Shown here piece after piece: positions 55,466-59,217 of a stretch of 64,000 nucleotides of DNA. The stretch lies in contig OZ024743.1 in NCBI GenBank assembly GCA_964016885.1, positions 119,288,001 to 119,352,000 of the forward strand, in the 5' to 3' direction. The notes beneath the pieces were generated by a model, which ran no database searches, was not told the DNA's origin, and was given only the letters and a program-made list of their open reading frames with translations. Within the stretch, counting starts at the first letter, position 1; each line of letters opens with the position of its first letter. The stretch comes from Eledone cirrhosa (lineage: Eukaryota). The translations under genes and the position numbers were made by a program.

Positions 55466-55899
55466 GGGAAAAAAAAAAAAAAATTATCCGGGAAAGACTG
55501 CCCTAACACCGGCCAGAGTTACCTCCCTTGACCTGCTGCAAAATCAAAACAAGATATTTTTGCGAGCAATGAATCTTGATGTAGATTTAACCCCCAAAAC
55601 TCTTTCCGAACTATATAAGGAGCACTTGTGATTATTTATGCCCTTGAGAAGCCCAACTGGGCGAAACGTACGTAGGTGATATTTTAAATAAACATGTTTT
55701 AACGGTCTATTCTCCGATTATTTACTTTCCCACGTGCTTACGCTCTGCTAACTCTCTAGCCCACTAAATATTAACACTTCAAATATTTAATACTGCCGGC
55801 ACTAGTATCGAGCACCTTTGGCATACGCTACTTGGCAAATAACTATATGTATCACCTATCCCTCCTTTTTCTCTCTTTCTCGATACGTAAATACTATAT
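55466..55899 (+). repeat. 5' pseudo-LTR of the Naiad PLE
   Basis: Near-identical to 58781-59217. Confidence 0.95.
55637..55681 (+). ncRNA. Minimal type I hammerhead ribozyme, U3-A8 core variant (5' pLTR)
   Basis: tatgccc TTGAGAA GCCC-aact-GGGC GAAA CGTACG TA ggtgata: 4-bp stem II, palindromic stem III, GUA site, weak stem I. Confidence 0.8.
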
Positions 55900-55941
55900 T
55901 ACCGTGCTCCTTTTGTAGAGCATCTCACCTTATTTGCCATT

Positions 55942-58104
55942 ATGTTGGAGAACCAACCGTTACCCATGTCTCTCAAGTGTATCCCCTTACCCAGCAGAAA
56001 AACCTACCTTAAACTGCTTATAGACGCTACTAATTCGTTTATACGGAGAGTCAGATGGAAGGCATACCACCTGGATAAGAACACCCGTAACCTTCCTGAA
56101 CCCAAAGAGAAGTATGGTTTCAAAACATACCGAAACCCACCGCACAACACCTTACTGGACTTATTTGAAGAGGACCTGCTGAAAATGATCAAAAACGTTA
56201 AGCTCAGAAAGAAACACCAATGCAGCAATCCATTCTTAACGCCCCTTGATACACTAATAACTAAGATCAAGAATGACCCGCACCTCTTCGTCACCTCCGA
56301 CAAAACCAAAAAGCTGTACAAGATGGACGCGAATGAGTATAAAAAATTCATCTATAAGGAACTACACAAAGACTACAAAAAGACACCCTCTAGTACCCTA
56401 AATGACATAAATAGAGTAGGGAAGGATATAGTCACCAGCTTAGAAATAGAAAAGTACACTAACCCGTACGTCCCTCTGACGCCTAAATTCTCTCTTAAGG
56501 ATCACAAATATGACTTTAATGAAAGCCCCTCTATTAGACTAATATGCCCCTCTACATCCGATATAGGTAAGATTAGTAAAGTGATCCTCGACAGAGTACT
56601 ACTCGAGCTTAATAGAAAGGCTAAGGTCTGCCTCTGGGGCAACACCGACCAGGTCATAAATTGGTTCACCGAGTTGCCGGATAAAGCCACCCTGAAATTC
56701 ATCCAGTTTGATATAGATAGCTACTACGCCTCTATCTCCCCCATACTCTTAAATAAGGCACTTATCTTAGCTAGATCTAACACTAGCCTCACTAAAAAAG
56801 AAATAGACATAATTCTAGCGGCACGTAGAACCATTATCCAGTTCGAAGGCTCCCACTGGACCAGAACCAACCGTCCTGATAACTTCGATGTCACGATGGG
56901 GTCCAGTGACTCAGCGCAAGCAACTGACCTGGTTGGGATATACCTCCTACATAAGCTTAGGGAGGAAATACCGGCCCTACAAGGAGGTGTATATAGGGAC
57001 GACGCCCTATTTACCGTTAGGAACCATAGCCTCCGTAGGATAGAGAACCTTAACAAACATATACACAGGTTCTTTAAGTCATACGGCCTATCCGTAACTA
57101 TGGACCTCAACCACAGGGTTGTCAACTTCCTGGACGTGACCCTGGAGTTGAGTACGGGCTTATACAAGCCATACCATAAGCCTGGAGAGTGCCTCTCTTA
57201 TATTAATTATGCCTCCAACCACCCTAATCAGACTCTCAACTCCATAGTCTATAGTATCTCACATAGAATCTCGAGGCTATCCGCCAATGAGGATATCTTC
57301 AACCAAGCGGCTGATTACTACAATAGGGCCCTGATAAGCGCCGGCTTTAACCGAGGAATTTCCTACATCCCTAACGCTAGCTCTAGAAACCACCCCCCTC
57401 ATAAAACTAACGTTATAGTAAGCCATACCTATAACCGATCACGCGGCGACCTCGTTAAAGTCGGATATAATAGAATAGATAACCGCACCAAAGATCACGT
57501 CCCCGGCGACGGTGAATACTGTAGATTACTCAAACTATTCCCCTATTACAAAACCAACAAAGGCGACGGCCTACTACCAACGCCTTCCAACCAACATCTT
57601 CGTGTACATAAACATGGAAGAGGTAGAAAGAGTGCACCCGAGCATAAAGTGAAAGGGGCACCGAACGGGCGACAGCGCATTAACACACATACGAGCGGTC
57701 ACTTAGATGGAACCACCCGTAGCAAAAGTACAAGGACACGTAATCGCCACCGTAACGTCCTATGGTTCCACCCCCCCTACTCTCGAAATGTGGCCTCCAA
57801 CATACCCCGGATATTCTTCGAAGCCTTAGAGAAGAACTTCCCACCCAACCATAGGTATAGAAAAATTCTTAATAGGAACAATATAGAAATATCCTTCTCT
57901 ACTACTCCTAACCTAGCAGACATCATAGGAACAACAAACCACAGTAAGATCACCAAGACACAGCACCTCGACACAGATGCACCTACACCTGACAATAACT
58001 ATATCGGCCTTAACAACTCCCTGACAGCATCCAATAGTGTTGGCAACGGCATCCGCAGACGCAACCAGAATGACCGCGAAGTGACTGGGGAACATGCAGA
58101 ATAA
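55942..58104 (+). CDS. PLE reverse transcriptase (Naiad-type), 720 aa, N-terminal part of an RT-EN polyprotein
   Basis: Motifs SLKCIPLPS..Y..LI...NSFIRRVRWKA, KYGFK, FDIDSYYASI, FDVTMGS, YRDD, NFLDVTL, YKPYHKP, SNHP and WFHPPYS. Confidence 0.93.
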   Translation: MLENQPLPMSLKCIPLPSRKTYLKLLIDATNSFIRRVRWKAYHLDKNTRNLPEPKEKYGFKTYRNPPHNTLLDLFEEDLLKMIKNVKLRKKHQCSNPFLTPLDTLITKIKNDPHLFVTSDKTKKLYKMDANEYKKFIYKELHKDYKKTPSSTLNDINRVGKDIVTSLEIEKYTNPYVPLTPKFSLKDHKYDFNESPSIRLICPSTSDIGKISKVILDRVLLELNRKAKVCLWGNTDQVINWFTELPDKATLKFIQFDIDSYYASISPILLNKALILARSNTSLTKKEIDIILAARRTIIQFEGSHWTRTNRPDNFDVTMGSSDSAQATDLVGIYLLHKLREEIPALQGGVYRDDALFTVRNHSLRRIENLNKHIHRFFKSYGLSVTMDLNHRVVNFLDVTLELSTGLYKPYHKPGECLSYINYASNHPNQTLNSIVYSISHRISRLSANEDIFNQAADYYNRALISAGFNRGISYIPNASSRNHPPHKTNVIVSHTYNRSRGDLVKVGYNRIDNRTKDHVPGDGEYCRLLKLFPYYKTNKGDGLLPTPSNQHLRVHKHGRGRKSAPEHKVKGAPNGRQRINTHTSGHLDGTTRSKSTRTRNRHRNVLWFHPPYSRNVASNIPRIFFEALEKNFPPNHRYRKILNRNNIEISFSTTPNLADIIGTTNHSKITKTQHLDTDAPTPDNNYIGLNNSLTASNSVGNGIRRRNQNDREVTGEHAE

Positions 58105-58660
58105 CAATCGCACCATCCCGCGTGCTGTGGGTTGTAATTGTGCTAACGACAGCTGCGGTAGCGTAGGTAACAACGTAGGCAGCAACAATGATAGCCTTAC
58201 CGTGGGAAATAGACGGAACCGCGACAGAAATTGCAACTGCCGCGACAGAGGACGCTGCCCCCTTAGAGGATACTGCTTGACTGATAGGGTTATATATAGA
58301 TGCACTATTACTAGCCACAATAGCGTTAAACATTATATAGGGGCCACCTCCGGCCCGTTCAAAATTAGGTTTCAAACACATCTCCACTCTTTCACAAATA
58401 GAAAACTAAGGCACTCCACTTCGCTCGCGGACTACATCACATCACTAAAGGACTTAAACATCAGCTTCTCCACGCACTGGGAGATTGTCGGCAGGGCTGC
58501 ATCGTACAACTTCAAGAGGAAATGCGATCTTTGCCTCATGGAGCTCTACCATATCATAACTGCACCCCACGAGCTCATCAACCGGAAGAGCTGAAACAGC
58601 GATAAGTTGTACACATCGCTTAAAAATATCCTTCTTTAGATGGGTTAAGAATGAAGAGTG
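58094..58660 (+). pseudogene. PLE GIY-YIG endonuclease domain, frameshifted relative to RT and again near its C-terminus
   Basis: CNCRDRGRCPLRGYC zinc-finger linker, VIYRC...HYIGAT...FKIRFQTH, C-terminal CDLCLME and LINR. The frame is restored by deleting one G in GGGG (58087-58090) and one A near 58587 (giving NRRAETAISCTHR...EE*). Confidence 0.88.
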
Positions 58661-58780
58661 AAATAGTACACTGGATCTCCCTGCAACAAGCCTTAACACC
58701 CCGGCGGGCAGGCGCAGCAAAATAACACCCAGAAAACAATCCTTGCACACCAGACCCAGCCTCAGACAAACCGATGCGGC

Positions 58781-59217
58781 GGGAAAAAAAAAAAAAAAAA
58801 ATTATCCGGGAAAGACTGCCCTAACACCGGCCAGAGTTACCTCCCTTGACCTGCTGCAAAATCAAAACAAGATATTTTTGCGAGCAATGAATCTTGATGT
58901 AGATTTAACCCCCAAAACTCTTTCCGAACTATATAAGGAGCACTTGTGATTATTTATGCCCTTGAGAAGCCCAACTGGGCGAAACGTACGTAGGTGATAT
59001 TTTAAATAAACATATTTTAACAGTCTATTCTCCGATTATTTACTTTCCCACGTGCTTACGCTCTGCTAACTCTCTAGCCCACTAAATATTAACACTTCAA
59101 ATATTTAATACTGCCGGCACTAGTATCGAGCACCTTTGGCATACGCTACTTGGCAAATAACTATATGTATCACCTATCCCTCCTTTTTCTCTCTTTCTCG
59201 ATACGTAAATACTATAT
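58781..59217 (+). repeat. 3' pseudo-LTR of the Naiad PLE
   Basis: Near-identical to 55466-55899. Ends at gtaaatactatat running into (TA)n. Confidence 0.95.
58955..58999 (+). ncRNA. Minimal type I hammerhead ribozyme, U3-A8 core variant (3' pLTR)
   Basis: Identical to 55637-55681. Confidence 0.8.

Follow-up and report, generated by a model that had tools for sequence, protein, structure and literature searches.

The Penelope-like element (PLE) located at positions 55466-59217 on the + strand of the window (the 64-kb stretch of DNA analyzed) is very probably, taking the full account together, a nearly full-length copy, recently inserted and now dead, of a PLE of the Hydra clade. A previous sequence-only reading had described a young PLE of a recently active family, sitting in (TA)n, which is upheld here, and had proposed an almost intact candidate driver. 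The latter proposal is not supported by the other copies of the family, many of which lack both frameshifts.

The copy encodes a reverse transcriptase (RT) followed by a GIY-YIG nuclease (EN) between direct pLTRs; except for the flanking microsatellites, to which no strand is assigned, all features below lie on the + strand. The 5' pLTR (55466-55899) is a 5'-truncated partial tandem copy starting with GGG-A15 and ending with TACTATAT. The 3' pLTR (58781-59217) is preceded by a 3' UTR (58662-58780) and extends from GGG-A18 to TACTATAT. The PLE repeat unit measures 3318 nt. Comparison of 55469-55899 with 58787-59217 revealed 99.5% aligned identity with 2 substitutions in 431 nt, in agreement with the earlier estimate of about 2 in 430; in addition, the A-run at the pLTR start is A15 in the 5' copy and A18 in the 3' copy. 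The element is flanked by (TA)n target microsatellites on the left (55360-55465) and on the right (59213-59315, overlapping the terminal TATAT of the element), as the sequence-only reading had noted. Such runs make up approximately 5% of the whole window and yet flank the element on both sides. No host genes were found among 83 candidate ORFs.

Other copies of the family were compared via four public runs (X1, X4, X5, and X12), with exclusion of the small-share runs X6-X10, the best word share with the window being 0.55. None of the runs is tied to the individual from which the window derives, and hence the reads are taken to represent other family copies. Family copies usually end at TACTATAT: the X1 depth drops 23-fold across 55899, and X5 contigs stop there in (TA)n. 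The stop at an internal tatat reported before is thus a real end but nothing special, since it is a common terminus of the family. Recurrent family ends were found at 55899 and 55735, the main one finishing in TATAT 43 nt upstream of the ATG. X1 depth over the pLTR was approximately 51 times that over the 5' ORF, a gradient usual for 5' truncation. Base 55622 is common to both pLTRs and differs from nearly all read depth of the other copies, which indicates that some private changes are older than the insertion. Signals of a candidate intron were observed in the 5' pLTR region, with donor-like sites at 55672 and 55887 and acceptor-like sites at 55759 and 55918.

Analysis of the coding region revealed three successive frames, each shifted by +1 and free of other stops, which confirms that no internal stops exist beyond those caused by the two frameshifts. 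ORF piece 1 (55942-58104) comprises 720 aa from the ATG, includes the RT (55942-57375) and thumb, and ends in a premature TAA resulting from lesion 1. It contains RWK at residue 38 (56053-56061), SDKT with DKT at residue 120 (56296-56307), and YRDD (56992-57003), and it matched an HMM built from 96 homologues with an E value of 2e-182. Two in-frame inserts follow, a basic, low-complexity insert of approximately 117 aa (57376-57726) and an Asn-rich insert of approximately 90 aa (57967-58225), the latter with a second CxC motif (58133-58156) that is also found in the closest relative, P0062. An in-frame 21-nt length variant of insert 2 was present in X5 and X12. Owing to these inserts, the family protein comprises approximately 910 aa versus approximately 706. 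The CxCX5C linker of the Hydra type, followed by P and another C (58232-58261), corresponds to the CxC...CP..G.C linker named in the earlier reading and found here from position 58232 onward.

The GIY-YIG core (58289-58543) consists of VIY (58289), HYIG (58331-58342), R and H (58367-58381), and CxxC..E (58523-58543), without CCHH, and matched an HMM with an E value of 2e-37. The claim of complete catalytic motifs in the RT and the nuclease was therefore borne out, both YRDD and VIY...HYIG (58289-58342) having been found. ORF piece 3 (58587-58661) carries E....CxH (58593-58616), the expected resumption after the second shift, and the natural stop (58659-58661). The EN (58289-58616) is thus C-terminal to the RT, and its N...E....CxH runs across lesion 2. 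Structural comparison of the nuclease with I-TevI gave a Z score of 8.9 and an rmsd of 2.2 over 85 aligned residues; four structural matches with Z of at least 5 were obtained, including I-TevI, T4 EndoII, and UvrC. In Foldseek, 10 of the first 11 matches were GIY-YIG nucleases, but none reached an E value of 0.001. Pfam gave neither an RT nor a GIY-YIG match for either ORF piece, and only three of six homologues tested gave weak matches. A PDB sequence search returned nothing significant, none of 82 candidates was recovered when the EN alone was used to search longer proteins for homologues, and metagenome and viral collections contained neither a relative nor an exact hammerhead match.

The Hydra clade is marked by RWK, DKT in place of DKG, CxCX5C, the absence of CCHH, and CxxC/CxH flanking E and N (Craig et al. 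2021, PMC8557442). Further traits are a (TA)n target, a canonical hammerhead near the 3' end, a nonconserved N-terminal GxKF/Y, and a single RT-EN ORF (PMC8557442). By motif comparison with Fig. S7 of that study, the element is assigned to the Hydra clade. The C-terminal GIY-YIG, RWK, DKT, CxCX5C, the lack of CCHH, and CxxC/CxH flanking the catalytic E and N were all found, and insertion in (TA)n was seen on both flanks and at the ends of other copies. The homologues are single ORFs, and a single RT-EN ORF is probable for the family from its other copies, this copy being broken twice. The unit of 3318 nt exceeds 3 kb because of the two inserts; a length below 3 kb is a general tendency in Hydra and not diagnostic (PMC8557442). 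Among the 96 homologues of at least 640 aa, out of 120 retrieved, DKT/S was present in 96, YRDD in 95, CxxC..E in 92, RWK/R in 84, and the CxCX5C linker pattern in 74. CxxC inside GIY-YIG was found in 0 of the 96, and in the element only one Cys lies between VIY and HYIG. A YGFK motif, not aligned to the canonical GxKF/Y, follows RWK here and in the homologues. The best database relatives were 46 to 56% identical. In an RT tree (quick search, 53 rows, without named Hydra references), the RT of the window grouped with P0062, P0001, and P0002 with an SH-aLRT of 100. Judged from these sequences, the element represents a distinct Hydra family, of which the literature searched contained no record.

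The element had previously been labeled Naiad type. Naiads are characterized by an N-terminal EN, CCHH, DKA, an insertion in the fingers, and the lack of a canonical hammerhead (PMC8557442). The (TA)n target and the partial tandem are shared with Naiads, and residue 247 marks a DKA tripeptide. However, this tripeptide sits in a nonconserved column, whereas the DK motif that is conserved upstream of RT1 is the DKT at residue 120, aligned with DKT/S in all 96 homologues. Together with the C-terminal EN, the lack of CCHH, and the presence of a hammerhead motif, this leaves Naiad membership with a practically negligible probability, and domain order rules it out.

The hammerhead motif is a type I minimal motif identified by descriptor match (55636-55684), with a U3-A8 core (55644-55650), stem II (55651-55662), a self-complementary stem III (55666-55673), a stem I of only about 2 bp, and a predicted cut after 55674. 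The complete motif with its compensated core is present in both pLTRs, on the sense strand near the 3' end; the second, identical copy has its core at 58962. Mononucleotide shuffling of the pLTR gave 0 matches to the descriptor in 1,000 shuffles. The predicted hammerhead is not formed in the MFE fold of the monomer (z, -0.1 to -0.8), and Rfam over 54500-60500 gave no hammerhead, its 42 matches all scoring below the gathering score and falling mostly in microsatellites or palindromes.

The first frameshift had been attributed to a single G inserted in GGGG (58087-58090). The window by itself would allow a single-base event at any of 23 positions (58082-58104), and the reads indicate a different lesion at about 58100. 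All four runs revealed extra sequence at 58095-58101 in other copies, amounting to 14 nt, and a 7-nt direct repeat, TGCAGAA, bounds the deletion there. Loose ends at this site overlap into 14 extra nt in one X1 contig, two X5 contigs, and 196 X12 reads. X4 record 15 exceeds the window span by 14 nt and shows only 3 mismatches, and X5 record 22, approximately 10% diverged, is 13 nt longer. The 14-nt difference is absent from the 12 indels listed and was assembled from loose ends and one contig. Padding of the frame with 14 (or 2) unspecified bases opened it, whereas 0, 1, 13, or 15 did not. The first break therefore looks like a 14-nt deletion with microhomology bounds, a biological lesion and not an extra G in GGGG.

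A programmed +1 frameshift at GGGG that sets the RT to RT-EN ratio would agree with the 17-nt overlap of the first two frames, which includes GGG-G. However, other copies, with 14 nt more, read through lesion 1 in one frame in two different stop-free sequence versions, the homologues are single ORFs, and a second shift would be needed as well. This explanation, which had been suggested in case the shift was common to all copies, is highly improbable, and it was set aside since X4 record 15 indicates continuous full-length copies. The literature searched held no report of programmed ribosomal frameshifting for GIY-YIG Penelope-like elements.

The second lesion (58582-58592) had been read as an extra A near 58587. 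A net +1 leading to a premature TGA (58592-58594) was confirmed, although in this region the other copies differ in more than a single A. In X1, 3,658 of 3,680 depth (99%) lack one base at about 58583, as do 194.5 of 311 in X5. A gap exactly at 58583 was found in 7 of 82 X12 reads and in 0 of an X4 depth of 24.7, X4 showing loose ends there instead; the indels listed leave out 23 rows.

Two rival explanations concern the origin of these lesions. If both shifts were assembly errors, the animal itself would carry an intact copy, possibly an active source element of a Hydra family. The near-identical pLTRs and retained catalytic motifs fit this explanation, as do the A-runs of unequal length, as often in long-read errors, in a comparison that includes no reads from the source individual. 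Loss of 14 nt between 7-nt direct repeats is, however, typical of biological slippage and not of homopolymer error. Furthermore, ORF1 differences seen in at least 90% of X1 depth were 6 nonsynonymous to 1 synonymous, compared to 7 to 15 among the remaining differences (Fisher P = 0.026; 29 ORF1 differences among the 40 listed of 582). This excess is expected of a copy that decays while its family is under constraint; residue 364, for example, is Leu here, and Pro is found at or beside this position in 99% of X1 depth and in close relatives. An intact copy is accordingly rated improbable. Somewhat less improbable, although still unlikely, is that the lesions were inherited, the copy belonging to a defective non-autonomous sublineage mobilized in trans by an intact relative and thus dead on arrival. 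This would account for the private base 55622 in both pLTRs and for most X12 reads over 58583 lacking a gap at that placement. The pLTR divergence (0.46%) predicts approximately 6 substitutions in the ORF, and two indels are rather many for it, slightly above expectation if indels amount to 5 to 10% of substitutions (P = 0.04 to 0.13, point estimate). Against inherited lesions, none of the displayed records shares the window's version across lesion 1, and X1 depth at 58583 is almost wholly without the extra base. The outcome for the copy would be the same under inheritance, namely, no driver.

Under the preferred reading of a copy that died after insertion, intact members would encode one protein of approximately 910 aa with RT, thumb, CxCX5C linker, and, at its C terminus, a GIY-YIG nickase. 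By analogy with other PLEs, the RNA would begin with the upstream pLTR, cross the ORF, and reach into the next pLTR. The nuclease probably nicks a (TA)n run, as the observed flanks suggest, and at a fixed internal RNA site, the TACTATAT end, the RT may prime from the nick; that end is observed, and priming is modeled on Poseidon_Ac. Reverse transcription over one whole unit and part of a second would yield the partial tandem seen here. Self-cleavage of the pLTR hammerheads would require dimer formation via the palindromic stem III. Afterwards, the 14-nt deletion would have arisen by slippage or microhomology repair, along with the net +1 in the nuclease tail. Because of both frameshift lesions, the copy would produce at most a nuclease-less RT, with no capacity to drive transposition.

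Apart from an unusually long family protein and a variant predicted self-cutting RNA motif, the copy is ordinary. Its value is mainly one of annotation: the Naiad label is corrected, and an apparent frameshift signal is an ordinary deletion. The Hydra clade is biochemically unstudied and sparsely covered in the literature searched, and the element adds a long-protein family to it. A tentative reading, possible but held with low confidence, is that the copy marks a still-active, enlarged Hydra sub-lineage (approximately 910 aa, duplicated CxC linker, U3-A8 dimer-type hammerhead) with intact sources elsewhere in the genome. The X4 run, under a second organism label, contains in-frame family pieces 98 to 99% identical, which might, if this reading is true, reflect recent spread between species. 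Intact copies, if they exist, would provide natural tests of linker-steered (TA)n targeting by the nuclease and of the part that dimers of the U3-A8 hammerhead play in PLE processing.

By eye, Hydra-1_Obim from Octopus bimaculoides comes nearest of the nine Hydra rows in Fig. S7 (PMC8557442) and shares the rarer YRDDAL, DSA..DL, and LA.Y forms. Motif likeness offers a tentative lead to a cephalopod host. The unit of the element is longer than those of the complete listed Hydra families (2,084 to 2,729 nt; PMC8557442), and its two inserts and second CxC are further differences from the Hydra clade. With Naiads the element shares the combination of GIY-YIG and RT, the partial tandem with pLTRs, the (TA)n preference, and the size (3.4 to 4.4 kb in Naiads; PMC8557442), but it is set apart by EN position, CCHH, DK motif, and hammerhead. 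In Poseidon_Ac of Anolis, the genomic 3' ends are determined by a fixed internal start of reverse transcription, which is located inside the ORF and has no homology to the target (Frangieh et al. 2024, PMC11167929). Poseidon_Ac is likewise a C-terminal GIY-YIG PLE with a pLTR hammerhead, AT-rich cleavage, and recurrent ends (55899 and 55735 here), but it belongs to another clade, and the main end here lies upstream of the ATG with a TATAT matching the target. The core of Hydra hammerheads is C3-G8 in all 26 Hydra rows listed in File S2 (PMC8557442), in contrast to U3-A8 here. U3-A8 minimal hammerheads are known from Schistosoma Cercyon PLEs (PMC4209133; also PMC3088659), which have the same compensated core pair, G10.1-C11.1, and a palindromic stem III, whereas the predicted hammerhead described here, with its very short stem I, sits in a Hydra-clade element.

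Analysis of the Penelope-like element (PLE) at window 55466-59217 revealed a reverse transcriptase (RT) followed by a C-terminal GIY-YIG nuclease (EN) with the markers of Hydra elements. The sequence-only reading had placed it among the Naiads, which is the wrong clade, and the Naiad description that it gave as established is contradicted by Craig et al. (2021; PMC8557442). The passages of that paper on these clades give Naiads a nuclease N-terminal to the RT, CCHH and DKA, without a canonical hammerhead. The Hydra elements described there have their nuclease at the C-terminus, carry RWK, DKT, and a CxCX5C linker, lack CCHH, show CxxC and CxH flanking the catalytic E and N, use (TA)n as target, and bear hammerheads. 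In a conceptual read-through translation of the element with X placed at both ORF breaks, RWK was found at residue 38, DKT at 120, and YRDD at 351; CxCX5C lies near residue 765, CxxC..E near 862, and N...E....CxH at the terminus. Among 120 homologues, the 96 of at least 640 amino acids share the Hydra-like motif pattern, and none of these 96 has two Cys within GIY-YIG. A profile built from them matched the first ORF piece at E 2e-182 and the second at E 2e-37. The EN domain was predicted with a pLDDT of 91, and its structure matched I-TevI (Z 8.9, rmsd 2.2, 85 residues), followed by T4 EndoII and UvrC. A quick tree with 53 rows, made up of homologues without a named reference, placed the element with the homologues P0062, P0001, and P0002 (SH-aLRT 100); the closest relative in 1.84 billion representatives was 46% identical. 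Hydra-1_Obim, the Hydra PLE of Octopus bimaculoides, shares rarer motif forms with the element in a by-eye comparison with the portion of Fig. S7 covered but differs in family. No earlier description of the element's family was found in the literature searched, nor any Hydra-clade PLE work from 2021 on beyond Craig et al., and the main text of an Octopus vulgaris repeat paper, in the portions covered, mentions neither Hydra nor Naiad (PMC13282606). A retrozyme preprint (10.64898/2026.07.22.740005) contributed nothing beyond background. The element very probably belongs to the Hydra clade, as a young but broken copy of a family apparently new to the literature.

The element has a pLTR-ORF-pLTR structure, with a unit of 3318 nt and one further repeat. 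Repeat alignment of the pLTRs (55469-55899 and 58787-59217) gave 2 substitutions in 431 nt, or 0.46% (Poisson 95% range, 0.06 to 1.7%), in agreement with the difference of about 2 in 430 noted before. Likewise borne out were the (TA)n insertion context, seen at both flanks, and the absence of internal stops beyond two shifts: the coding region is split over three frames, each +1 relative to the preceding one, with no additional stops. The A-runs heading the pLTRs have 15 (left) and 18 (right) bases. The left pLTR begins with GGG, the three bases preceding the right A-run, and is therefore a 5'-truncated second copy, a partial tandem arrangement that the part of PMC8557442 on PLE structure describes for PLEs. 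No second copy of the family was found within the 64-kb window. A MITE-like structure with inverted arms of about 100 nt and (GT)n/(AC)n (54884-55340) lies directly left of the element's (TA)n, and MITE-like or palindromic elements adjoin (TA)n at 59362-59812 and 59882-60010; the family of the last recurs at 7477, 8769, 28281, 40258, and 46405.

Other PLE remnants were observed in the window. A decayed Hydra-like relic (25330-26520, plus strand; about 34% identity by tblastx) has several short frames that match the homologue profile. The C-terminal part of a canonical PLE (32638-33369, minus strand) retains a Cys linker, has a pair of Cys within GIY-YIG, and matches the Pfam GIY-YIG family at E 6e-7; by its motifs we take it to be Neptune-like. 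An RT fragment at 42651-43340 (plus strand) resembles canonical PLEs by eye (GIAMG and YIDG) and had no match to Pfam RT.

Four of 14 listed public sequencing runs (X1, X4, X5, and X12) were compared with window 55484-58783; their individual may differ from that of the window. At 58095-58101 (lesion 1), one X1 contig, two X5 contigs, and 196 X12 reads depart from the window and continue with extra letters. Overlapping X1 and X5 loose ends assembled into 14 additional bases, the X12 loose end had 14 extra bases of different sequence before returning to the window sequence, and X4 record 15 placed 417 nt across 403 window bases (14 gap letters, 3 mismatches). One diverged X5 contig was 13 nt longer, not 14. 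Inserting 14 unknown bases opened the frame. Because a 7-nt direct repeat bounds the absent stretch, the window copy appears to have dropped one repeat and the spacer. Loss of one direct repeat with its spacer is a hallmark of slippage or microhomology repair, and the copies compared suggest that lesion 1 is a 14-nt loss of this kind. It is not the signature of a single G inserted into GGGG, as proposed earlier. Pieces from X4, whose organism label is unlike that of X1, are 98 to 99% identical to the element on 56435-58444, and one X4 piece is in frame across lesion 1. They may come from a related species, a mixed sample, or transfer.

At lesion 2 (about 58582-58592), among the indels listed, the base at about 58583 is missing from 3658 of 3680 X1 depth (5 contigs) and 194.5 of 311 X5 depth; a gap there occurs in 7 of 82 X12 reads and in none of X4 at the same placement. 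The X4 and X5 loose ends suggest a family sequence N-S-R-A-E, similar to N-S-R-T-E in Hydra-1_Obim, so that the lesion may span several bases. The second shift, reported as an extra A near 58587, is net +1. Because of lesion 1, translation ends after 720 amino acids and does not reach the linker or the nuclease, while the terminal E....CxH is lost through lesion 2; the element is therefore unable to supply a complete enzyme and cannot be kept as the candidate driver of the sequence-only reading.

The read-through protein would have about 910 amino acids against a homologue median of 706, because of two inserts. At the two insert sites the spacing is 183 and about 161 residues; the 115 homologues that could be measured have medians of 69 and 74, and similarly long spacings occur in 4 of them at the first site and 3 at the second. 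Family reads cover both inserts, and a 21-nt length variant of the second preserves the frame, which indicates a family property. The second insert contains a second CxC motif with a counterpart in P0062. The inserts and this motif are variation at tolerant sites and no new architecture.

In a small, selected sample (29 ORF1 differences within 40 of 582 rows), differences at 90% or more of X1 depth were 6 non-synonymous to 1 synonymous, against 7:15 for the remainder (p 0.026). This pattern fits a copy drifting from a constrained family. The pLTR divergence predicts about 6 substitutions. Base 55622 is the same in both pLTRs and different in family copies from the runs, so some private changes are older than the insertion. 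X1 contigs in identity bands from 99% down to below 90% number 903, 1080, 1143, and 523, and the family thus comprises young and older copies.

Both pLTRs contain a type I minimal hammerhead motif, absent from the earlier reading. Its parts are a UUGAGAA core, a stem II of 4 bp with a closing G-C pair, GAA, a stem III formed by an 8-mer fully complementary to itself, a GUA site, and a stem I of 2 bp. In 1000 mononucleotide-shuffled versions of the pLTR, a descriptor written after the motif had been seen found no match. The motif was not detected by Rfam, and the ribozyme shape was not in the lowest-energy fold of the monomer. Hydra elements have C3-G8 in 26 of 26 rows of the portion of File S2 covered (PMC8557442), whereas the core here is U3-A8. 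Sections of the ribozyme literature describe this pair as an active natural variant (PMC3088659) known already from PLEs of Schistosoma, and they take palindromic stems III as a sign of dimer action (PMC4209133, PMC6765202); this analogy suggests that the pLTR hammerhead would act as a dimer. Further U3-A8 hammerhead-like motifs with self-complementary stems III lie at 29097-29132 and 53309-53353 (plus strand; motif positions 29100 and 53313), each with a (TA)n run at most about 200 nt downstream. Both are probably left over from the 3' ends of other PLE families, and the variant is thus not unique to the element in this genome. In each arm of a 320-nt near-perfect palindrome (10108-10427), a CUGAGGA pattern resembles a hammerhead, which may be due to chance in an AT-rich inverted repeat.

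X1 depth, which is not copy number, is about 51-fold higher on the pLTR than on the 5' ORF, a 5'-truncation gradient, and falls 23-fold across 55899. Ends in (TA)n were found in 11 X1 contigs at 55735 and 2 X5 contigs at 55899. Since depth drops at 55899 and contigs end there in (TA)n, the TACTATAT end is the family's main terminus; a second terminus lies about 160 nt upstream. The 3' stop at an internal tatat noted previously is thus real, but it is the family's main terminus, recurrent across copies. In some X1 and X4 copies, the 3' UTR is about 30 nt shorter, with 58752 joined straight to the A-run (58752-58783). By analogy with Poseidon_Ac (PMC11167929), the element would be transcribed from the pLTR, AT-rich DNA would be nicked, and reverse transcription would begin at a fixed internal site, thereby setting the genomic end. 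The end of the element finishes in TATAT and, unlike that of Poseidon_Ac, could hypothetically pair with the nicked target.
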